Positions 2,391 through 13,340 of a stretch of 64,000 nucleotides of DNA are shown piece after piece (the first letter of the stretch is position 1; the number at the start of each line of letters is the position of its first letter). The translations under genes were made by a program, and so were the position numbers. The DNA comes from Chloroflexota bacterium (GTDB lineage: Bacteria; Chloroflexota; UBA6077; FW602-bin22; JAMCVK01): NCBI GenBank assembly GCA_023475225.1, contig JAMCVK010000036.1, positions 26,164 through 90,163 on the forward strand, in the 5' to 3' direction. The notes beneath the pieces were generated by a model that was given only the letters and a program-made list of their open reading frames with translations, had not been told where the DNA came from and ran no database searches.

Positions 2391-2795
2391 TTAGTTGCTG
2401 CGCTTGCCTGATTGGTAGAGCTTGAGGTTGGGGATGCGGGAGAAGTGCTGATCGCGGCTAACGATTGTGAGATTGTGGGCAAGGGCCGTAGCGGCAATCC
2501 AGAGGTCATTATCAGGAATGAGCAGCCCTTGGGCGCGAAGATCGGTGCGTGTCTGGCCGTACTAGCGGGCGACGGTAAGGTCTGGGGCGATAAGGTCGAC
2601 GGCCTGGGTGAAGTCATCGAGTTGGGTGATGCGTCGAGGGGAATCGGGCTTGGTTAGCAAGCCTTCGTAAATTTCACCCCAGGTGATAACACTTAGGGCA
2701 ATACCCTTATCGGCCAACTCACTAATAAGATGGACGGCGTTGGCTCTTCCATTGAGAAAGCTAATTGCCCAGTCGGCGTCCAGGAGATACTTCAT
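2391..2795 (-). pseudogene. vapC: PIN-domain toxin VapC interrupted by an in-frame TAG (plus-strand cta at 2562-2564)
   Basis: ORF 2562..2795 (MKYLLDADWAISFL...) ends at TAG. The same frame continues YGQTRTDLRAQGLLIPDNDLWIAATALAHNLTIVSRDQHF...* to a TAA at 2391-2393. Together this is a normal ~134-aa PIN protein, with a 4-nt ATGA overlap to the upstream antitoxin. Confidence 0.8.
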
Positions 2796-3097
2796 AGTTT
2801 GATGGGAGCGCTGGGTGGAGCCTCATGGCGAGCCTTATACAGATCGTCGATCATCCGATCCGCGTCCAGGTCACTCCAGACACCCGCAAGGTCTAGCAAC
2901 TTGTTCTTGTGGCGTTTGCTTTTTGGTATTGGCGCTGCCTCGGTATAATCTTCGGGATTAATCACAACAGCAAGAGGTTCCCCCTCTCGTTCGATAAGCC
3001 TAGGGGTCTTATCAGTGTGGACATCCTCAAGGATACGTACGAGGTTCGTGTTTGGTCCAAGCCGTACCCGCTTTAGTTCTCTGGCCATAATATTCAC
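2792..3097 (-). CDS. Type II antitoxin partner of VapC, paralog of 31264..31557
   Basis: 101 aa. Overlaps the vapC start by 4 nt. The N-terminus MARELKRVRLGPNTNLVRILEDV... is paralogous to MARELKTIDISNIPELLRIVEEV at 31557. Confidence 0.7.
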   Translation of the reverse strand: MNIMARELKRVRLGPNTNLVRILEDVHTDKTPRLIEREGEPLAVVINPEDYTEAAPIPKSKRHKNKLLDLAGVWSDLDADRMIDDLYKARHEAPPSAPIKL

Positions 3098-3548: not shown

Positions 3549-4073
3549 ATGACACCACGAAAATCATCTAAGACAGAGCCCCAAATATTGGAGATTCCAT
3601 CGCAAAGGATGGCCGTGGTCCGTGCTAAGGGCGCCCCGGACAAGGTCTTCTCTGAGGTCCTGCCGGCGCTCTACAGTTCAGTTTATACACTAAAGTTTGA
3701 CCTCAAGAAGAAGGGAACGCCCACTTTCAAGGTCAGCCCTCCCCGCGCCCGCTATCCTGATGCTCACCTAGTGCCCAAAGAGGAGTGGACTCATATCATA
3801 GGCTTACCCATTCCTGAAGATACAACTTCTTTACCCCAGAAGGTGCCTAATGTTGAGGTCAAGATTGAGACTTGGGAATATGGCACCGTAGCCCAGATAC
3901 TTCACCTGGGACCTTATGACCAGGAGTATCCCACTGTTGAGCGCTTACATAAGTTCATTGAAGAGAACAGTTACGAGATAGCTGGTATGCACGAAGAGGA
4001 ATACCTCACTCGCCCCGAAGCCAAAGTCTCCAAGACTATTATCAGGTATCCGGTGAGGAAAATAAGGCGTTAG
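3549..4073 (+). CDS. GyrI-like / AraC effector-binding-domain small-molecule-binding protein
   Basis: 174 aa. The size and pattern (RMAVVRAKG...; WEYGTVAQILHLGPYDQEYPTVERLHKFIEENSYEI...HEEEYL) fit the GyrI-like fold. Assigned from memory of the family, with no HMM run. Confidence 0.55.
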   Translation: MTPRKSSKTEPQILEIPSQRMAVVRAKGAPDKVFSEVLPALYSSVYTLKFDLKKKGTPTFKVSPPRARYPDAHLVPKEEWTHIIGLPIPEDTTSLPQKVPNVEVKIETWEYGTVAQILHLGPYDQEYPTVERLHKFIEENSYEIAGMHEEEYLTRPEAKVSKTIIRYPVRKIRR

Positions 4074-4271: not shown

Positions 4272-4535
4272 ATGAAAGAGCTTGTCAGTAGTGTTAGTCC
4301 CAAAGGTCAAATCACTATCCCGGTGGAGATAAGAAAGCTCCTCGGAGTAAAACCGAAGGATAAGGTGGTCTTTAAAGTAGAAGAAGGGGAGGGGGTGAAA
4401 ATTGCTCCCTTGGGATCCCGTCTTGAAACCAGCTTTAAAGCCGTACCGCCCCTTAAACAACCCCTCACCCTGAGGGAGATGTCTGACATTGCCGGAGGGG
4501 AACAGGCCCAAGAGGCGGCCAGAGAAGGCTTATAA
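4272..4535 (+). CDS. vapB: AbrB/SpoVT-family antitoxin (VapB)
   Basis: 87 aa. Contains SPKGQITIPVEIRKLLGVKPKDKVVF, the swapped-hairpin AbrB motif. It sits directly upstream of a PIN gene. Confidence 0.85.
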   Translation: MKELVSSVSPKGQITIPVEIRKLLGVKPKDKVVFKVEEGEGVKIAPLGSRLETSFKAVPPLKQPLTLREMSDIAGGEQAQEAAREGL

Positions 4536-4539
4536 AACT

Positions 4540-4953
4540 ATGGCGGTGGAGTTTCTCGACACCAACCTTATCATCCGCTACCTCACTCAAGATAACCCTG
4601 AACAGGCAGAGAGGGCCTATCGCATTCTCCAACAATTAGAGGCTGGAACACTGACTGTAACTACTTCCGAGGCCATCATCATCGAGGCAGTCCAGATTCT
4701 TTCCTCTAAGGCTCTGTATAACCTTCCCAGACAAGATATTAGAACCCACCTAACTACCATCATCGCCCTTAGAGGCTTGAAGTTACCCAATAAGAGAGTC
4801 TATCTTCGAGCCTTAGACCTTTATGTTTCCACCAATCTCGACTTTATTGATGCCCTCAACGTAGCTCATATGGAACGAGCCAAGATCGATACCATTTTGA
4901 GTTTTGACCGAGACTTTGACCACATAAAGGGTATCATCCGGCGGGAGCCGTAA
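4540..4953 (+). CDS. vapC: PIN-domain toxin VapC
   Basis: Best start is the ATG at 4540 (MAVEFLDTNLIIRYL), 5 nt after the vapB stop. A C-terminal SFDRDF motif is present. Paralog of 25343..25774. Confidence 0.85.
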   Translation: MAVEFLDTNLIIRYLTQDNPEQAERAYRILQQLEAGTLTVTTSEAIIIEAVQILSSKALYNLPRQDIRTHLTTIIALRGLKLPNKRVYLRALDLYVSTNLDFIDALNVAHMERAKIDTILSFDRDFDHIKGIIRREP

Positions 4954-4997: not shown

Positions 4998-5231
4998 ATG
5001 CCCCTTCTTGACAGTTACTACAAGGTTCCAGAGGCAGCCATCTATCTGAGAGTCCGCCCGGAGACAGTAAAACGCCTTTGCCAGCGGGGGCGCATCCCCG
5101 CCGAGAAGGTTCACAATACCTGGCTCATTCAGAAAGAGAAGCTGGAGGAGTTCGCCGCGACCTACCGCAATCCGAGGCGTCTCAACGCTGGGGCATCCGC
5201 AGCCTCCTTGAAGCAGGATAGGGGGAGGTGA
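4998..5231 (+). CDS. Excisionase-family helix-turn-helix DNA-binding protein
   Basis: 77 aa. Contains AAIYLRVRPETVKRLCQRGRIPAEKV, a typical HTH_17/excisionase motif. It ends 7 nt before the methyltransferase start. Confidence 0.7.
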   Translation: MPLLDSYYKVPEAAIYLRVRPETVKRLCQRGRIPAEKVHNTWLIQKEKLEEFAATYRNPRRLNAGASAASLKQDRGR

Positions 5232-5237
5232 ACTGTT

Positions 5238-7262
5238 ATGGCCAGAAAACGACCTCCGAGTGGCGACCCCGACCGGGTCCGTGACTACCGATACGAGGAG
5301 GCTAAACGCAAGAACAATCCTGAAGTTGGGCTGGGCAAATATGAGCATGCGCTGCGAGAGCAGCGCAGGTATGAGTATGATCCCCACCTCAGCCCCACCC
5401 TGGTCTGGGCGGGCAAGGCCGAGCGCCAGTCCTTTGAGGTGCCCACCGTCTCCCTTCATATCCACGAGCGCATCTCCACCCGCGCTATCATCCACGCCGC
5501 CGAACGTCCGGAGAAGCAGCTCTCCCTTTTCGCCGACCCCCAGCTCCCTATGGACAAGCGGGTGGAGTTCTACCAGCATGAGATGAACTGGGCCAACCGC
5601 CTCATCCTGGGCGATTCCCTGCTGGTGGCGAACTCCCTGCTCCAGCGGGAGGGCATGGTGGGCAAGGCGCAGATGATCTATGTGGACCCGCCCTACGGCA
5701 TCTCCTACAGCTCCAACTTCCAGCCCACGGTGCACCAGCGGGATGTAAAGGACGGACAGGACGCCAGCCTGACCCGGGAGGTGATGCAGATAAAAGCCTT
5801 CCGGGATACCTGGACTCTGGGCATCCACTCCTACCTTACCTATCTGCGGGACCGCCTGCTGCTCTGCCGTGACTTGCTGGCCGAAAGCGGCTCCATCTTC
5901 GTCCAGATCGGCGACGAGAACCTGCATCTGGTGCGGGCACTGATGGATGAGGTGTTTCAAAAGGAGAACTTCGTTGGCGTTATCGTTTTTCGTAAATCAG
6001 GAAGTCAAACTGCCGAATATATTCCAGGCATATGCGACTATCTTATTTGGTATGCGAAAAGGAAAGATGAACTAAAATATCGGCAATTATTTGTTCCCAA
6101 GGATTTGGCCACTTCAGATGAGTTTCAAGAGGTCGAGTTGCCAGACGGAACACGACGAAGGTTAACACATGGAGAGAGGATGGGCTATGCACCCCTTCCT
6201 CAAGGTGCCAGAGTATTCAAATCTACTGATCTTCAGTCCCGGACAGGCTCTGAAGCCAGCCGACAGCCGTTTCAGTTTGCAGGTAAAGTTTGGCATCCAA
6301 GGGAGGGGGGCTGGAGAACAAACCCTTCAGGCCTGCAGAGATTAGCGGAAGCTGGTAGGCTTTTGCCGGAACGCACGGCGCTACGCTACATCCAATATCT
6401 TGAGGACTCTCCCGGTTCCTATTTGACCAACTTATGGTCCGACATGATGGGACAGCCAGAAAGGCAGTTCGCTGTTCAAACGAACACAAAGGTTGTCCAG
6501 CGCTGTATCCTCATGACCACCGACCCCGGCGACCTGGTGTTTGACCCCACCTGCGGCTCGGGAACCACGGCTTATGTGGCGGAGCAGTGGGGCAGGCGCT
6601 GGATCACCTGCGATACCTCAAGGGTGGCCCTGACCCTGGCCCGCCAGCGACTGCTCACCGCCACCTTCCCCTACTATGAGCTGGCCCACCCGGAGGAAGG
6701 TGTCTCCTCCGGTTTCAGGTATAAGATGGTGCCCCACATCACCTTGAAGTCCATCGCCCAGAACGAGCCGCCTCAGCAGGAGACCCTCTATGACCAGCCC
6801 TATGTGGACCGGAGCAAGGTGCGGGTGTCTGGGCCCTTCACTGTCGAGGCCATCCCAGCCCCAACCGTGGATACCCCCGAAGAGGCCGCTGTGCCCCCTA
6901 AAGAGGAACCAGTAGCCGTAGGCCCAACGGCTGACCCCGCTGGGAGCTACATCTCCAACATGATGGAGCTGCTGCGCCGGGACGGGCTTACCTTCCCCCA
7001 GGGCAAGAAGCTAACTCTTCAGAATGTGCGACCCTTAACCTCCAAGGTGCTCCACGCCGAGGCTGAAGCCCAGGAGAATGGGAAGTCGGTTCGGGTAGCC
7101 GTGTTCTTCGGCCCGCCTTTTGGGCCCGTGGATGCCAACCAGGTGCGCCAGGCGATAGAGGCTGCCGAATGGCATGATCGGCTAATCGTGGCCGGCTACA
7201 GCTTTGACTCCGAGGTGCAGGCCTTCCTCCAGAAGAGTCCTCACCCCCGCCTCAAGACCTAG
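5238..7262 (+). CDS. mod: Site-specific DNA methyltransferase, N6-adenine/N4-cytosine beta-class, type III Mod-like; ORF ends at an in-frame TAG
   Basis: 674 aa. Motif IV (VDPPYGISY) precedes motif I (VFDPTCGSGTTAYVAEQWGRRWITCD), which is the beta-class order. The same reading frame continues after the TAG at 7260-7262. Confidence 0.9.
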   Translation: MARKRPPSGDPDRVRDYRYEEAKRKNNPEVGLGKYEHALREQRRYEYDPHLSPTLVWAGKAERQSFEVPTVSLHIHERISTRAIIHAAERPEKQLSLFADPQLPMDKRVEFYQHEMNWANRLILGDSLLVANSLLQREGMVGKAQMIYVDPPYGISYSSNFQPTVHQRDVKDGQDASLTREVMQIKAFRDTWTLGIHSYLTYLRDRLLLCRDLLAESGSIFVQIGDENLHLVRALMDEVFQKENFVGVIVFRKSGSQTAEYIPGICDYLIWYAKRKDELKYRQLFVPKDLATSDEFQEVELPDGTRRRLTHGERMGYAPLPQGARVFKSTDLQSRTGSEASRQPFQFAGKVWHPREGGWRTNPSGLQRLAEAGRLLPERTALRYIQYLEDSPGSYLTNLWSDMMGQPERQFAVQTNTKVVQRCILMTTDPGDLVFDPTCGSGTTAYVAEQWGRRWITCDTSRVALTLARQRLLTATFPYYELAHPEEGVSSGFRYKMVPHITLKSIAQNEPPQQETLYDQPYVDRSKVRVSGPFTVEAIPAPTVDTPEEAAVPPKEEPVAVGPTADPAGSYISNMMELLRRDGLTFPQGKKLTLQNVRPLTSKVLHAEAEAQENGKSVRVAVFFGPPFGPVDANQVRQAIEAAEWHDRLIVAGYSFDSEVQAFLQKSPHPRLKT

Positions 7263-7352: not shown

Positions 7353-7712
7353 GTGCGCATAGAGGCTCAGAAGGACGGAACCTACACGGTGGAGCTGCGG
7401 GGGGTGGATATTTACAACCCCTTCACTGGCAATGTGGAATCTACGGATGGGCGGGATGTGGCTGCCTGGTTCCTGGACCAGGACTACGACGGCGCCACCT
7501 TCTATGTATGCCAAGCCTTCTTCCCCGGAGGCGATAGCAATCCCTGGGAGCGCCTGGAGCGCTCGCTGCGGGGCATCGTTGACCCGGATAAGCTGGAGGC
7601 ACTGCGCGGCACCGTATCGCTTCCCTTCAAGCCTGGGCCTAACCATCGCATCGCAGTGAAGGTGGTAGACATCTTCGGGAACGAGATCGTGAGCGTAAAG
7701 CGGCTGGAATAG
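7353..7712 (+). CDS. C-terminal continuation of the Mod methyltransferase, same frame as 5238..7262
   Basis: Both 5238 and 7353 are in frame 0 (mod 3). Codons 7263-7352 are open (IAYIRPDTQTGDLLKTTASSQIFTVFGQPD...). The ending ...HRIAVKVVDIFGNEIVSVKRLE resembles the C-terminus of long methyltransferases of this family as I recall them. Confidence 0.65.
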   Translation: MRIEAQKDGTYTVELRGVDIYNPFTGNVESTDGRDVAAWFLDQDYDGATFYVCQAFFPGGDSNPWERLERSLRGIVDPDKLEALRGTVSLPFKPGPNHRIAVKVVDIFGNEIVSVKRLE

Positions 7713-8019: not shown

Positions 8020-8595
8020 ATGGATGGGAATGAAGTAAACGTTGCCTTTGATATCCTTCTAGAAGAGATTGAGATGGTGGCAAACGGCCTTAACGAAGCC
8101 GGGTCCGAGGCCTTCAAGAGTGGGCAATATGATAGGGCAAGAGAAGTCATTGAAATGGCAACGCGGCTGTCCGATTTCCGGGGCAGGGTTAAGACGCTCC
8201 AGCAGGAATGGGCGAGGCTCTTTGCTGCCCGAATCCCATCTAGACTCGCGAAGAGGATACGTCGGCGCCCTGTAGAGCGTCTTTCGCGGGGTCTGCGCAC
8301 CGGGGAGGACGCGTATCGTCTTCCAATTTTAGAAACGCTTGTGGAACTAGGAGGGAGGTGCTCTGTAGGCGAAGTTCTCGACCGAGTCGCGGTTAAGATG
8401 AAGGGCATTTTTAATGAGTATGACTATCAGCCCCTTCCTTCGAGCCCCAAAACGGCACGGTGGCGGAATAGCGCTCAGTGGTGTCGTAACACCCTTGTAA
8501 GGGAGACCCTTATGAAGGCTGATTCCCCTTCGGGTATTTGGGAGATTTCTGAGGCAGGACGAAAACTAATTTCTCAGCACACCAAAATGCCATGA
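8020..8595 (+). CDS. Winged-helix (Mrr_N-like) protein encoded between mod and res
   Basis: ATG at 8020, 5 nt after AGGAGG (the track ORF starts at GTG 8014). The C-terminal half LPILETLVELGGRCSVGEVLDRV...ARWRNSAQWCRNTLVRETLMKADSPSGIWEISEAGRKL matches the Mrr N-terminal wHTH pattern. A 4-nt ATGA overlap joins it to res. Confidence 0.6.
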   Translation: MDGNEVNVAFDILLEEIEMVANGLNEAGSEAFKSGQYDRAREVIEMATRLSDFRGRVKTLQQEWARLFAARIPSRLAKRIRRRPVERLSRGLRTGEDAYRLPILETLVELGGRCSVGEVLDRVAVKMKGIFNEYDYQPLPSSPKTARWRNSAQWCRNTLVRETLMKADSPSGIWEISEAGRKLISQHTKMP

Positions 8596-11480
8596 GCAGC
8601 GCTGTTGACAACCCCATTATCAATAATGCCTTTGAGGAGCCAACCCGCTGGTGGGACTTCCCCGCTGGGCAGCCTACCCTGCAGGCGGGACGGCGGCCTG
8701 CGGGCTACTACCGCCGTCTCCTGCGCACCCGCGCTCGCACCGAGGGCAGGGCTTTGGCCGTTGAGGAGTTCACCGAGCTGAAGGAAGTCAACCGCATGCG
8801 TGAGCGAGTGAAGAGCTGGCGGGAGCACGGCTACCCTGGTGTCACCCGCACTACCAGGGACCTGCTCCACCACTGGCGGCGGGACGAGCGAGAGCGACGG
8901 CTTTTCTTCTGCCAGCTTGAAGCTGCGGAGACCATAATCTGGCTGGTGGAGGCCTCTCCTGCCGAGCGCCAGGGCATTGACATCCCCAGGGATGAAGGAC
9001 TGAGGCGCTACGCCTGCAAGATGGCGACGGGCAGTGGCAAGACGGTGGTGATGGCGATGCTCATTGCCTGGTCGGTGCTCAATAAGCTCCAGAACCGCCA
9101 GGACACCCGCTTCTCCGATGCTGTCCTGGTGGTCTGCCCCAATCTCACTGTCAAGGAGCGGCTCCAGGTCTTGTTCCCCACCAATGAGGACAACTACTAT
9201 GCCAAGTTTGACTTGGTGCCGCGTTCGCTGCTGCCCGCCCTGTCCGGCGGCAAGTATCTGATTACTAACTGGCACGCCTTTGCTCCCAACGATGAGCCAG
9301 AGCCAGGAGAGGAGAGCCCCAGGTATCGGAAGGTGCTCCGACGGGGAAAGGAGAGCAATAACGCCTTCTGCAATCGTGTTCTGGCTGACCTGGGTGGAAA
9401 GGGAAACATCCTGGTCCTGAATGATGAAGCTCACCATTGTTATCGCCCTGCCCCACTGGAGGAGAACTCAAAACAGGGACGCCTATCTGCCACAGAGGGC
9501 CTGACCAGGAAAGAAGCAGCGGAGGAGTGGGAGCGGGCCACCCGCTGGGTGCAGGCCCTGGATCGCATCAACGCTACCCGTGGGATCAATTTTTGCGTGG
9601 ACCTATCCGCCACTCCCTACTACATCAAAGGCAGCGGCTACGAAGAGGGACGGCCTCTCCCCTGGATTGTCTCTGACTTCGGACTGGTGGACGCCATTGA
9701 GTCGGGCATAGTCAAAATTTCCCGTATCCCGGTGGACGATGACTCTGGGCGCCCAATCCCAGCCTACTTTCACATCTGGAAATGGATCATGGAGCAGCTC
9801 CCTCTCTCAGAGCGGGAGAGGGGAAAACGCCACGCCAAGCCGGAGTCAGTGCTTCAGCACGCCGATGGTGCGCTTCAGATGCTCGCCGGGCGCTGGAAGC
9901 TAACCTTTGATGAATACCGAAAGCAGGGGGCTCCGGTGCCACCTGTCCTTATCGCAGCCTGCCAGGACACCGGACTTTCCGAGCTTGTCCACGAATACAT
10001 TGCCCAAGGTAAGGTTCTGCACGAGCTACGCAACCTCCCCAGAGAAGAGCGAGCTATCCGCATTGACACCAAGCTCCTGGAGGAAGCGGAGAGCCATACT
10101 GAAGCCACTCCCGTCTTGGTTTTGGGTGAAGAAGGTGAGGAAGCCATTAGTGGCCCGAAGCTCACAAAAGAGAGACAGGCGGAATTGCTTCGGGAGAAGG
10201 TAGCCACCATTGGCAAGCAAGGTAAACCAGGGGAACAGGTGCGTTGTGTGGTCTCCGTCGGCATGCTCAACGAGGGGTGGGATGCTCAGAACGTGACCCA
10301 GGTCTTTGGTCTACGCGCCTTTGACTCACAGCTATTGTGCGAGCAAGTAATGGGCCGGGGGCTTAGGCGTACTCAGTATGACGACCTCACCGTACCTGAG
10401 TATGTGGATGTGTATGGCATCCCCTTTGAGGTGATACCCGTCCAGAAGGGCAAAATCAGCACTCCTCCTGAGGTGCGTCCGACCACCCTGGTGAAAGCGC
10501 TTCCCGAGCGGGAGAAGGACTATGAGATTGCCTTCCCACGAGTCGAAGGCTACGTCTTCGATGTGCGCTACCGCGTCACCGCCGATGTAGCGGCTATTCC
10601 TGAGATGGAACTGACGCCCAGCACTGATCCTACCGAAGTCATGGTCAAGAATGCCAACGGCTATCGGATGGCCCGTCCCGACCAGCTTGGCCCGGGGGAT
10701 GTCATCGTGCATGACCGCTCAGAGTTCTATCGCGGCCAAAGGCTCCAGGCGACCATGTATGACATGGCCAGCCAGATAACCCACCGGTTGGTTCCTGATA
10801 GGAAAGACGGTGAACAGGTTGATGTGAAGCGGCGCCTGCTCTTTCCCCAGGTGCTGAGAATAGTCCAGGAATATCTGGAGACTCGGGTAAAACGATACGC
10901 TGTGCCTCTGGAGGAAGTCGGCTTGCTGCGCTACCGCCAGCGTGTGGTAGAGAGGCTACAGCAGGCTATCAGACCCGATACAACGGCAGGAGAGCAGCCC
11001 CTGCTGCCGGTCATTGAACGCTTCCGCCCCATCGGCTCTACACGCGACGTGCTCTTCCGCACCAGCCGCGTATGTCACGGCACGGGGAAGAGCCATATCA
11101 GCCACGTCGTAGTAGATACAGCGGCCTGGGAGCATACCGTAGCCTTTGCTCTGGAGCGCCTTGATTACGTCCTCTCCTACGCCCGAAACGACCACCTGGA
11201 TTTCACCATACCTTATGAGTTCGATGGGCAGAGTCATTACTACATCCCAGACTTCTTGGTTCGTGTGCGGTGTGAGAATAACACAGTGGTCAATGTGATT
11301 TTGGAAGTGAAGGGGTTTGAGAGTGAAAGGGATAGGGCAAAGGAAGCAGCAGCCCAGCGGTGGGCATCGGCGGTTAATCATCATGGCGAGTTTGGGAAAT
11401 GGATGCTGCTTGTGTGTCGAGACCCGCGGAAGCTAAATGAGATGTTGACAGGGCTACGTTCGTCAGCAAGTGCAGGATAG
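8592..11480 (+). CDS. res: Type III restriction enzyme Res subunit: SF2 DEAH helicase with a C-terminal PD-(D/E)xK nuclease
   Basis: 962 aa. Walker A is MATGSGKT, motif II is VLNDEAHHCY, motif VI region is VSVGMLNEGWDAQNV, and the C-terminal nuclease-like motif is YIPDF...ILEVKG. Confidence 0.9.
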   Translation: MSSAVDNPIINNAFEEPTRWWDFPAGQPTLQAGRRPAGYYRRLLRTRARTEGRALAVEEFTELKEVNRMRERVKSWREHGYPGVTRTTRDLLHHWRRDERERRLFFCQLEAAETIIWLVEASPAERQGIDIPRDEGLRRYACKMATGSGKTVVMAMLIAWSVLNKLQNRQDTRFSDAVLVVCPNLTVKERLQVLFPTNEDNYYAKFDLVPRSLLPALSGGKYLITNWHAFAPNDEPEPGEESPRYRKVLRRGKESNNAFCNRVLADLGGKGNILVLNDEAHHCYRPAPLEENSKQGRLSATEGLTRKEAAEEWERATRWVQALDRINATRGINFCVDLSATPYYIKGSGYEEGRPLPWIVSDFGLVDAIESGIVKISRIPVDDDSGRPIPAYFHIWKWIMEQLPLSERERGKRHAKPESVLQHADGALQMLAGRWKLTFDEYRKQGAPVPPVLIAACQDTGLSELVHEYIAQGKVLHELRNLPREERAIRIDTKLLEEAESHTEATPVLVLGEEGEEAISGPKLTKERQAELLREKVATIGKQGKPGEQVRCVVSVGMLNEGWDAQNVTQVFGLRAFDSQLLCEQVMGRGLRRTQYDDLTVPEYVDVYGIPFEVIPVQKGKISTPPEVRPTTLVKALPEREKDYEIAFPRVEGYVFDVRYRVTADVAAIPEMELTPSTDPTEVMVKNANGYRMARPDQLGPGDVIVHDRSEFYRGQRLQATMYDMASQITHRLVPDRKDGEQVDVKRRLLFPQVLRIVQEYLETRVKRYAVPLEEVGLLRYRQRVVERLQQAIRPDTTAGEQPLLPVIERFRPIGSTRDVLFRTSRVCHGTGKSHISHVVVDTAAWEHTVAFALERLDYVLSYARNDHLDFTIPYEFDGQSHYYIPDFLVRVRCENNTVVNVILEVKGFESERDRAKEAAAQRWASAVNHHGEFGKWMLLVCRDPRKLNEMLTGLRSSASAG

Positions 11481-11724
11481 GAAACAATGTCCAGGCATAG
11501 AAGTCTGACCCTAAAGAAGCTCATCTTGAGATGTTCAAGCTTGTTGTTGGTAGATTAGACAAGGGCCGAATCGTGCCAGCACTTTGCAAAGAGGATAAGT
11601 CGGTGTGGGATGCCGTTGGTCTTGCATTCAAGGGGTGCTACTGTCTCCTTGGGAGAGACGATGGGGTTGTCCTTGAGCGTCAGAAGAAGAGTTTAAGTCC
11701 AGCTAACTAGAGGAGGAAAAGAGA

Positions 11725-12021
11725 ATGGCAGGCAAGAGGTTCTCACGTTCACGAGACTTCAACGAGAGTAGCCTTGAAAAGGCCCCAAAAGGTAAGCCAG
11801 TTGTATACAAAATCAAGAATAGTGACGGCAACAACATCTACACTGGTAGCGCCAAAAGAGGCAGGGTGACAGAGCGCCTGAAGGAGCACTTGCCGGGTGG
11901 CCCCGACCCCATCAAGGGTGCCGTGACTTTCCAAGTGAAGCAAATGGGGTCCATCCAGGAGGCGCGGGCGGAAGAAAAGAAGATAATCGAAAAGGAAAAC
12001 CCCAAACATAACAAGCAATAG
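11725..12021 (+). CDS. Stand-alone GIY-YIG nuclease-domain protein
   Basis: 98 aa with a strong RBS (GAGGAGG). VVYKIKNSDGNNIYTGSAKRGRVTERLKEH ... EEKKIIEKENPKHN fits GIY-(x9-11)-YIG, R, H and the terminal E...N pattern. Confidence 0.6.
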   Translation: MAGKRFSRSRDFNESSLEKAPKGKPVVYKIKNSDGNNIYTGSAKRGRVTERLKEHLPGGPDPIKGAVTFQVKQMGSIQEARAEEKKIIEKENPKHNKQ

Positions 12022-12075
12022 TAGATAGAGATTGCTCACAGACTTGAAACCTGTTTTCAGTCGTAAGGAGGTATA

Positions 12076-12921
12076 ATGTCATTTGGCATCGTTATAAAGG
12101 GGCCAGAAGGTCTCGTTCTTGCAGCTGAAAGCCGAGTAACCCTTGCAGCACAACAACCGCAAGGCCCTGCCATCCATGTGAATTTTGACAATGCAACCAA
12201 ACTGCTTTCCTTCTCCCCTCCAAATATTGCTGTTGGGGCTGTCACTTATGGGCAGGCAGCCATTAGATTGAGAACAGCTCACAGTTTCATACCAGAATTT
12301 GAATCTGGTTTGCCACAAGAAAGACTAGCCATCCGGGACTTTGCTCAACGTATGAGTGATTTCTTTATGCAACAATGGCAATCCGCCATGCCACCAACCT
12401 ATGATGGGCCAAACATGACTTTCGTGGTCGGTGGATTCAACGAGGGAGAACCCTATGGGAGAGTTTTTCTATTCGACATACCGCGAAATCCCCCACCTGT
12501 GGAACAGCACCTTGCCACCGATGTTTTTGGAATAACCTGGGGAGGGCAGCGCGAGTTTGTTGATCGTCTCATACAAGGCTATGATCATAGATTAGTGGAT
12601 ATCGTAACCCGGGCCCTCAATTTGCAGGCCGCACAAGCACAGGGGCTACTGCAAGCCCTAGGCCAGCTGCAGATGGCACTACCTCTGGCAGCAATGCCTT
12701 TGCAGGATTGTGTAGACCTGGCAATCTTTTTTATAAGAACCACCATTAGTGCACAAAGGTTGACTGTTGGAATTAGGGGTTGCGGTGGTCCGATAGACGT
12801 GGCAACTATCACAAGGAGAGAGGGACTTAGATTCGTTCAGCGTAAACAAGTAATCGGAGAAATAGCGTCCGGCGGTGAAGGGTTTCAATCTGAAAGGGGG
12901 AGAGCAACATGGAATCCGTAA
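12076..12921 (+). CDS. Proteasome beta-subunit-like Ntn hydrolase with Ser at the nucleophile position
   Basis: 281 aa with RBS TAAGGAGG. Hand alignment to T. acidophilum beta: M-SFGIVIKGPEGLVLAAESRVT vs TTTVGITLKDAVIMATERRVT; TKLL vs KKLF (Lys33); FVVGGF vs LLVGGI; MPLQDCVDLAIFFIRT...GGPIDVATITRREG vs MTVDEGVDLVIRAI...GGMIDVAVITRKDG. Confidence 0.6.
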   Translation: MSFGIVIKGPEGLVLAAESRVTLAAQQPQGPAIHVNFDNATKLLSFSPPNIAVGAVTYGQAAIRLRTAHSFIPEFESGLPQERLAIRDFAQRMSDFFMQQWQSAMPPTYDGPNMTFVVGGFNEGEPYGRVFLFDIPRNPPPVEQHLATDVFGITWGGQREFVDRLIQGYDHRLVDIVTRALNLQAAQAQGLLQALGQLQMALPLAAMPLQDCVDLAIFFIRTTISAQRLTVGIRGCGGPIDVATITRREGLRFVQRKQVIGEIASGGEGFQSERGRATWNP

Positions 12922-13106
12922 GGCATACGCGGCCGTTTGGCTACGCACATATTCCTGCTCTGTCTGATAATCAACTCACGGCAACATACCAGGCTGTAGG
13001 CTGGAGTGAACTGAGTAAAGAATTGACAATCTTAACCTATCCAACTTCTCCAGAAACGAACGAGCCGGTAGAACTTCCAAGCGTGACGCTTCCGGCATGG
13101 GGGTGA
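12909..13106 (+). CDS. Hypothetical small protein, possible third gene of the GIY-YIG/Ntn operon
   Basis: 65-aa ORF preceded by AAGGGGGAG. Overlaps the end of the upstream gene by 13 nt. No recognisable motif. Confidence 0.3.
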   Translation: MESVRHTRPFGYAHIPALSDNQLTATYQAVGWSELSKELTILTYPTSPETNEPVELPSVTLPAWG

Positions 13107-13268
13107 TATTCCCTCAAACAAACATGTTTGTTCTCTTGCTGTCACCTGTGGTCGCAGCTAGAAATGCTCAAGTAGACATGCACTCGATTCTTGTGCGCCC
13201 CTTGAGACCCCTTAGCAGGAGAATCTTTACTCGATCCCACAGCAGTGTTCTCTGCGCCGTTAGCCCGG

Positions 13269-13340
13269 GGAGCCATGCAGCATTCGAACCTCCGACACCA
13301 TGATTAAGAGTCAGGTGCGCTACCTCTGAGCCAATGGCCC
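13269..13340 (-). tRNA. tRNA-Lys(CUU)-like sequence, probably a degenerate or pseudo tRNA
   Basis: The reverse complement GGGCCATTGGCTCAGAGGTAGCGCACCTGACTCTTAATCATGGTGTCGGAGGTTCGAATGCTGCATGGCTCC folds with a 7-bp acceptor stem and a CTCTTAA anticodon loop. However the T stem (GGAGG/GCTGC) has two G-G mismatches including 53-61, and the anticodon and D stems have one mismatch each. There is no encoded CCA. Confidence 0.45.

Follow-up and report, generated by a model that had tools for sequence, protein, structure and literature searches.

A proteasome-like hydrolase and its small acidic partner form a conserved gene pair that is followed in many related loci by predicted type II toxin genes

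In the window analysed here, a stretch of 64,000 nucleotides from a Chloroflexota bacterium (contig JAMCVK010000036.1 of assembly GCA_023475225.1, positions 26,164 to 90,163), three co-directional genes between a restriction-modification (R-M) system and a tRNA gene encode a GIY-YIG nuclease of 98 amino acids (aa), a proteasome homologue (PH) of 281 aa and an acidic protein of 65 aa. Comparison with related loci shows the protease and the small protein, as predicted from their sequences, to be a conserved and coupled pair, in which the partner is bipartite and beside which unrelated putative toxins have been recruited repeatedly. The new element is this context of the protease family, not the trio of genes in the window.

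The 281-aa protein is a predicted proteasome-fold N-terminal nucleophile (Ntn) hydrolase. As a single query it finds no match in Pfam, PADLOC, NCBIfam or the PDB sequences, and a narrow family profile gives only E 0.09. A profile of diverse relatives is needed; built from 60 of them, it matches the beta subunit of Thermoplasma acidophilum at E 5.5e-5, and its 44 best hits are proteasome subunits without exception (44/44). The alignment runs in register, with Ser2 on Thr1, Glu18 on Glu17 and Lys42 on Lys33, and pairs the segments AAESRVT and DNATKL with ATERRVT and NGKKL of the T. acidophilum subunit. PF00227 is matched (E <= 0.01) by five of the 60 alignment members and not by the window protein itself, so that homology rests on the family profile and on the fold. 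The AlphaFold2 (AF2) model, with a predicted local distance difference test score (pLDDT) of 64.7, has its strands and helices in the same order as a proteasome subunit, in keeping with the alpha-beta-beta-alpha sandwich of that fold. When Foldseek compares the model with the PDB, every one of the top 50 matches is either an alpha or beta subunit of a proteasome or Anbu, with a best E of 3.6e-5; Anbu is a weak structural match, at rank 35 (E 2.1e-3).

The putative active site is preserved in most of the family. Residue 2 is Ser in 118/118 locus-derived sequences, and the nucleophile position of the 60 diverse relatives holds Ser in 40 and Thr in 16 (56/60 Ser or Thr), the pattern expected for a catalytic N-terminal residue. 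Of the same 60, 59 retain Asp/Glu18 and 56 retain Lys42. A Met-Ser start is a substrate of methionine aminopeptidase, which makes a propeptide unnecessary; once Met is removed, Ser2 is predicted to act as the nucleophile with Glu18 and Lys42. The extra Gln/Leu-rich segment (approximately residues 170-208) folds in the model into two helices, 173-181 and 185-198, placed between H3 (159-167) and H4 (204-224), and H1 and H2 are retained. Such an insertion may keep the protein from assembling into double rings. A sequence-only reading of this DNA had proposed the proteasome fold, a Ser1 nucleophile exposed without a propeptide and a Gln/Leu-rich insertion of ~35 aa, and all three proposals stand, the insertion now resolving into a helix pair.

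Judged by its insertion and its distribution, the protease is probably a member of the PMI group described by Fuchs et al. 2021. The family comprises 3,009 representatives of 50%-identity clusters (E <= 1e-3). Among curated plasmids no PH relatives were found, and among curated phages the relatives are confined to a distant, solitary 340-aa subfamily in phages of P. aeruginosa. In Pseudomonas phage LESphi2 (L148, 287-1309) and 15 related phages, this 340-aa homologue, 27% identical over residues 2-182 and labelled 'proteasome subunit beta' in LESphi2, stands alone beside an integrase at the prophage end.

To place the protease in context, 133 protease loci were collected, listed as 52 genomes, 80 metagenome contigs, 3 viral contigs and the window. 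Directly 3' of the PH gene, on the same strand and mostly overlapping it or separated by a few bases, a small open reading frame (ORF) is found in 120/133 loci. An iterated hidden Markov model (HMM) detects a shared N-terminal domain of ~55 residues (hereafter the N-domain) in 78 of these 120 first downstream ORFs, always adjoining PH, with F10, G11, P16, T24, A25, Y27, W32, Y44, P48, P57 and S58 as conserved residues. The domain is acidic (median pI 4.8; the window protein also 4.8) and matches no Pfam family; for both reasons, a role as a DNA-binding antitoxin domain is unlikely. The window protein consists of the N-domain only (residues 7-63 of 65). In the window, the start codon of the small ORF lies inside the last PH codons, giving a 13-nt overlap with the PH stop. 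A word-indexed search with this ORF in a collection of 15 billion proteins returned no candidates, not even an exact match; evidently, gene calling for the source record passed it over. Its conservation and position nevertheless mark the 65-aa ORF as a genuine gene, with predicted translational coupling to PH, which bears out the earlier reading of it as a real ORF.

The bipartite build of the partner becomes apparent where a toxin gene follows. Toxin counts refer to the 93 distinct loci with at least 1 kb of downstream sequence. In 36 of them (39%), a gene of a type II toxin family comes directly after the small gene, either in overlap with it or a few bases away: 17 are MazF/PemK, 10 RelE/ParE, 8 Doc/Fic and 1 PIN. 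Representative Pfam matches are at E 4.6e-23, 3.5e-10 and 1.4e-9 for PemK, 2.6e-13 and 5.9e-10 for Fic/Doc, 2e-5, 5e-4 and 6e-6 for ParE/RelE, and 1.3e-4 for PIN; the same toxin HMMs match only three other ORFs in 1.22 Mb of flanks. In toxin-bearing loci, the small protein combines the same N-domain with a C-terminal tail that matches the toxin type: W[DE]xLSDEALxxFE accompanies one MazF group, DWMRPEEDEAWRSL another, and AWxxLAEM accompanies Doc. The lengths of N-domain-positive proteins are 88-122 aa where a toxin follows and 57-122 aa (median ~73) where none does. The small gene occupies the antitoxin slot of the canonical mazEF, phd-doc, relBE and vapBC operons, and the module offers no other antitoxin candidate. 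In three further loci, the genes in the toxin slot have no Pfam match and are candidate new toxin families: L091 2278-3000 (240 aa), L124 1913-2455 (180 aa) and L053 11288-11560 (90 aa).

On the protease tree the toxin types are interleaved, with 24 changes over 81 leaves. The nearest tree relatives of the window protease carry Doc (L061), RelE (L007), MazF (L006 and L069) or no toxin (L005 and L067). In the window, no toxin gene, toxin remnant or antitoxin-tail remnant is found at 13107-13266; a tRNA gene stands 160 nt beyond the small ORF, leaving no space for a toxin gene. The DNA similarity between the window and its closest relative is limited to the protease gene. A reading of the window copy as a recently decayed three-gene module was rejected for lack of any toxin or tail remnant downstream of the small ORF. 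Neighbour clustering over 51 genome loci reveals no conserved neighbour besides the small ORF and the toxins, and in particular no AAA+ ATPase.

The pair is conserved across many bacterial phyla, in Methanobacterium and in some phages, with a patchy distribution; PH proteins from Chloroflexi and Methanobacterium share 62-66% identity. The module also occurs inside phage structural gene clusters, in a moron-like manner. On one IMG/VR viral contig (L143, 3273-7619) it is inserted between the genes for a major head protein and a virion structural protein, and a head maturation protease is also present; on another (L141, 5001-8474) it lies near a Neck1-like gene and includes a RelE/ParE toxin. These phage genomes, together with TA/R-M islands (toxin-antitoxin, TA), make a role in phage-host conflict plausible.

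The degradation of type II antitoxins is ascribed to housekeeping proteases, Lon and Clp among them, and the mechanism of toxin release is disputed. The gene arrangement described above suggests a different supplier of proteolysis. The N-domain would be the element by which the protease binds or cleaves the small protein. The tail, judged by gene order, overlaps and its toxin-specific forms, would be the part of the antitoxin that neutralises the toxin. The protease would then set the lifetime of the antitoxin, most likely by degrading it, and the whole would constitute a self-contained protease-antitoxin-toxin module acting as an addiction or abortive-infection switch. On balance, the comparative evidence leans towards the pair being functionally tied in such a protease-antitoxin-toxin architecture. 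The direction of control, degradation as opposed to protection or maturation, is held with less confidence than the tie itself. In a tentative extension, which is possible and clearly less well supported than the tie, the PH family would represent the dedicated protease of a new three-component class of TA or abortive-infection systems: a small adaptor-antitoxin would connect the protease, by way of the shared N-domain, to interchangeable MazF, RelE/ParE, Doc or PIN toxins, its regulated cleavage by the Ser1/Thr1 active site would free the toxin, and the toxin-less pairs would be the ancestral sensor-protease core.

Several observations weigh against a protease-antitoxin-toxin module. No toxin is present in 57/93 loci, which implies that toxin control cannot be the primary function of the pair, and that some role must belong to the pair itself. 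The N-domain HMM fails, in 20 of the loci with a toxin, to recognise the small ORF that intervenes between protease and toxin. The toxin and antitoxin roles are putative, as they are assigned from family membership and gene order, and a proteasome-type protease lacking an unfoldase may fail on folded proteins. The protease model is of moderate confidence (pLDDT 64.7), and the AF2 single-sequence model of the small protein reaches a pLDDT of 54 and a predicted template modelling score of 0.20. In addition, the rare GIY-YIG family lies upstream of PH, in one case as a remnant, in two loci that are not mutual closest relatives. The window pair, having no toxin, cannot itself poison the cell or act as an addiction module. 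The addiction role proposed in the earlier reading thus gains indirect backing from the 36 other loci with toxins after the pair, and falls away for the window itself. The window pair most likely consists of a protease and its cognate regulator or substrate, onto which TA functions would have been repeatedly grafted, and lost.

The closest competitor to a protease-antitoxin-toxin architecture, rather doubtful in itself, is a stand-alone proteolytic complex in which the small protein serves as assembly factor, cap or inhibitor in cellular quality control or regulation, the toxins being secondary and opportunistic fusions. Beyond the toxin-less majority of loci, it draws on the N-domain-only partner being the commonest form (36 loci) and on the tight coupling of the two genes, which points to production at a fixed ratio. 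The insertions may bind interactors, as Fuchs et al. suggest (PMC8665760), and some loci lie among housekeeping genes. In one Zixibacteria genome (L001, 3478-8855), a single case, a MazF-bearing module is placed directly after quality-control genes of the McsA/McsB/ClpC type and before the gene of the L27 ribosomal protein. A housekeeping complex fits poorly with the patchy distribution, in which Chloroflexi and Methanobacterium share 62-66% identity, and with the presence of the module in phages and TA/R-M islands. The repeated recruitment of four toxin superfamilies is also easier to understand if the stability or availability of the partner is conditionally regulated.

An arrangement resembling type VI systems is improbable. 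Here the small protein would act as an adaptor, docked on the protease by its N-domain and holding the toxin with its tail, so that the toxin and not the antitoxin is handed over for degradation, as SocA does with SocB for ClpXP, and the constant N-domain with its toxin-specific tail does have an adaptor-like build. However, no unfoldase is associated with the module, and compact folded MazF, RelE, Doc and PIN proteins are, from what is established for self-compartmentalising proteases, unlikely to enter a proteasome-type chamber unaided; the antitoxin-before-toxin order is equally compatible with direct neutralisation. It is more improbable still that PH acts as a transpeptidase or ligase of defined sequence specificity, for which the small protein would serve as dedicated substrate or tag: connectase is a precedent for a proteasome homologue with an insertion acting as a ligase (PMC8665760), and the conserved F10, G11, P16, T24, A25 and Y27 could form a recognition sequence, but in connectase H1/H2 are missing and the insertion falls between S3 and S4 (PMC8665760), whereas PH has H1/H2 and an H3/H4 insertion, and no target protein is conserved in the neighbourhood.

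The place of the GIY-YIG gene bears on a further alternative, in which nuclease, protease and small ORF would together make up a single module for defence or addiction, its effector being the nuclease. The 98-aa protein is, by domain match and key residues, a stand-alone GIY-YIG domain, as the sequence-only reading had it: PF01541 is passed narrowly (24.7 bits where 22.6 are required; E 2.9e-5), a precomputed match to it exists for about half of the 98 family members (stand-alone proteins of ~97 aa), and Tyr28, Tyr39-x-Gly41, Arg51, His55, Glu84 and Asn96, each at least 93% conserved in 98 relatives, are all present. The three genes are co-directional on the + strand with strong ribosome-binding sites, nuclease and protease are separated by a 54-nt gap, no terminator is predicted between the genes, and the trio lies in an AT-richer stretch of a TA/R-M-rich region (GC 0.485 at 11501-13000 versus 0.56-0.60 over the R-M genes). 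This layout, too, agrees with the earlier description. Between 11300 and 13500, scanning gave no sigma-70-like promoter; it gave a single terminator-like site, which falls within a gene remnant upstream of the nuclease. Identical 281-aa and 98-aa proteins are recorded from a Chloroflexi metagenome-assembled genome.

Co-occurrence decides against the trio. A family HMM run over the 133 protease loci finds an intact GIY-YIG copy in the window only (1/133), plus a 36-aa C-terminal remnant in L014; tblastn of the window nuclease against the other protease loci returns nothing, and none of eight contexts of GIY-YIG relatives contains a proteasome homologue. A 266-aa gene downstream of the nuclease in one such context (L145) was considered as a proteasome homologue and is not one. 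In the two closest relatives with upstream sequence (L144 and L145, 70-73% identity), the nuclease gene comes after an overlapping radical-SAM gene of the SPL family (spore photoproduct lyase-like), to which it is translationally coupled. In the window, the stump of the same gene precedes the nuclease: it encodes residues 276-332 of a 355-aa SPL protein (the last ~57 codons), is detected by tblastn with the SPL proteins of L144 and L145 at E 2e-21 and 2e-25, respectively, and is truncated just past the stop codon of the R-M gene res at 11480. The L144 protein matches PF20903 (SPL) at E 1.3e-12, and no SPL gene occurs at any other protease locus. Because the closest relatives follow SPL and an SPL stump is left in the window, the nuclease appears to be the surviving half of a different, decayed cassette; on this evidence of gene content, it is a neighbour outside the conserved PH module, derived from a DNA-repair-type SPL + GIY-YIG cassette. 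Moreover, the putative toxins of the module are without exception encoded downstream of the small gene and depend on a tail, which the small protein of the window does not have. The single three-gene module is therefore very unlikely, even with a GIY-YIG remnant upstream of PH in L014 and the rarity of the nuclease family in its favour. The two occurrences of the family upstream of PH may reflect chance, a shared island type or an old linkage. The pairing of nuclease and protease proposed earlier thus fails on co-occurrence. Known defence models offer no match either: in PADLOC-DB 2.0, the protease and the small ORF match none, and the GIY-YIG protein gives only a weak homing-endonuclease match (E 0.0059).

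The more distant GIY-YIG relatives have other neighbours, namely Res/Mod genes, insertion sequence elements or a conserved 66-aa ORF. This ORF is nearly identical in L059 (3095-3295) and L147 (1786-1986), where it overlaps the nuclease stop codon. In L057 (4001-8294), a relative with 55% identity lies directly upstream of ResIII helicase and N6_N4 methylase genes, an arrangement that resembles the window, in which the nuclease comes after the Res gene. In L014 (9007-9661), the ORF of a BrnA antitoxin comes after a BrnT toxin gene and reads into the 36-aa GIY-YIG remnant, 340 nt upstream of the PH gene; the same locus has a Doc toxin downstream.

From about 2.8 kb up to the tRNA gene, the window is dense in TA and R-M genes (Table 1), a lower-GC stretch upstream of the R-M system being rich in TA-type genes. 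This system is type III-like, with Mod, an Mrr_N protein and Res. The methylase is apparently split: the 674-aa ORF corresponds to positions 77-586 of PADLOC MTase_III and the 119-aa ORF to positions 869-981 of 983, which may reflect a frameshift or a pseudogene. The tRNA-like end noted earlier is a true gene for tRNA-Lys(CTT). The window has no other tRNA gene, and the 3' end of this one points toward the TA/R-M-rich region. An integrase and an att repeat of the tRNA-Lys 3' end were both sought around the region and neither was found, and the interpretation as an integrative element was dropped.

Table 1. Features of the protease locus and of the TA/R-M-rich region preceding it, in window positions
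Feature	Position	Strand	Details
Phd/YefM-like antitoxin	2792-3097	-	
GyrI-like protein	3549-4073		
PIN-domain protein (toxin type)	4489-4953		
HTH_17 protein	4998-5231		
Type III Mod, apparently split	5238-7262 and 7353-7712		
HicB-like antitoxin fragment, 54 aa	7785-7949		Between mod and res
Mrr_N-domain protein, 193 aa	8014-8595		Between mod and res
Res helicase-nuclease	8592-11480		
SPL radical-SAM 3' remnant	11510-11710	+	Found by tblastn; ORF 11531-11710 (59 aa) inside
GIY-YIG gene	11725-12021	+	98 aa; ATG start; GAGGAGG upstream
Proteasome-homologue (PH) gene	12076-12921	+	281 aa; ATG start; AAGGAGG upstream
Small acidic partner gene	12909-13106	+	65 aa; ATG start; GGGGGAG upstream
tRNA-Lys(CTT)	13267-13340	-	Found by ARAGORN

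A full-text search of open-access papers and preprints found no link between a proteasome homologue and TA systems, although an earlier description elsewhere is possible; nor was one found in works that cite the catalogue of 2021, in the NetFlax TA network, in a RelE/ParE survey of 2025 or in a proteasome review of 2026. If the protease-antitoxin-toxin architecture is correct, it would provide a self-contained and genetically tractable case of regulated antitoxin proteolysis by the module's own proteasome-type protease, and would reveal a role for bacterial proteasome-fold enzymes that have no unfoldase partner.

Compared with known systems, the module shares features with several and coincides with none of those considered. 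From ordinary type II TA operons the window differs in that no toxin gene adjoins the antitoxin-like gene; among relatives, 36/93 loci do have an adjoining toxin gene. Toxin-antitoxin-chaperone (TAC) systems such as HigBA-SecB and CmdTAC are similar in three respects: a third protein, neither toxin nor antitoxin, is encoded alongside the TA pair; one accessory family is combined with different toxin families; and an extra antitoxin segment provides the tie to the accessory protein, ChAD in TAC and, putatively, the N-domain here. They differ in the nature of the accessory protein, a SecB-like chaperone in TAC and a predicted proteasome-fold hydrolase here, with no chaperone gene conserved nearby. 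The extra segment is N-terminal and folded-looking in the present module, whereas in TAC it is a C-terminal extension, and the pair of accessory protein and N-domain is mostly toxin-less here. RosmerTA/ImmA-type systems (NetFlax node D25) likewise tie a protease family to many unrelated toxins in a combinatorial TA network (PMC10440598). Their metalloprotease domain lies within the antitoxin, often with an HTH (PMC10440598), whereas a separate Ntn hydrolase is found here; the antitoxin-like protein of the present module is small and acidic and contains no known domain. A proteasome-like node is not mentioned in the NetFlax paper (PMC10440598).

Among proteasome-fold enzymes, PH resembles HslV, Anbu, BPH and 20S beta in its fold, in having a nucleophile at the N-terminus and counterparts of Asp/Glu17 and Lys33, and in the GGxIDVA block near its C-terminus. 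It differs from them in the lack of a single-sequence match, in the H3/H4 insertion and in the use of Ser rather than Thr as predicted nucleophile in the window clade. Unlike HslVU, it has no HslU-type AAA+ partner conserved nearby in the 51 genome loci. The Anbu operon contains transglutaminase-like, ATP-grasp and Alpha-E genes, none of which is conserved near PH. With respect to its neighbour, the window also departs from the SPL + GIY-YIG pairs of L144 and L145, as the GIY-YIG gene is kept while the SPL gene is destroyed.

The closest counterpart is found in the catalogue of 22 new proteasome homologues by Fuchs, Alva and Lupas 2021 (PMC8665760). The PMI (short for a proteasome homologue bearing multiple insertions) of its group II, in which an H3/H4 insertion marks PMI-2 to PMI-6 (PMC8665760), share with PH the proteasome beta-like core, the catalytic triad, the lack of a propeptide and the H3/H4 insertion (PMC8665760). 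PMI-2 and PMI-4 also share its broad and patchy spread over bacterial phyla, Euryarchaeota and phages (PMC8665760, Table 1). For all of the new homologues, the catalogue reports no genomic context or co-occurrence suggestive of function (PMC8665760), and this is where the present loci differ, with their conserved small partner and frequent toxin genes. If the architecture proposed above holds, they would offer the first functional handle on an 'orphan' proteasome homologue catalogued in 2021.

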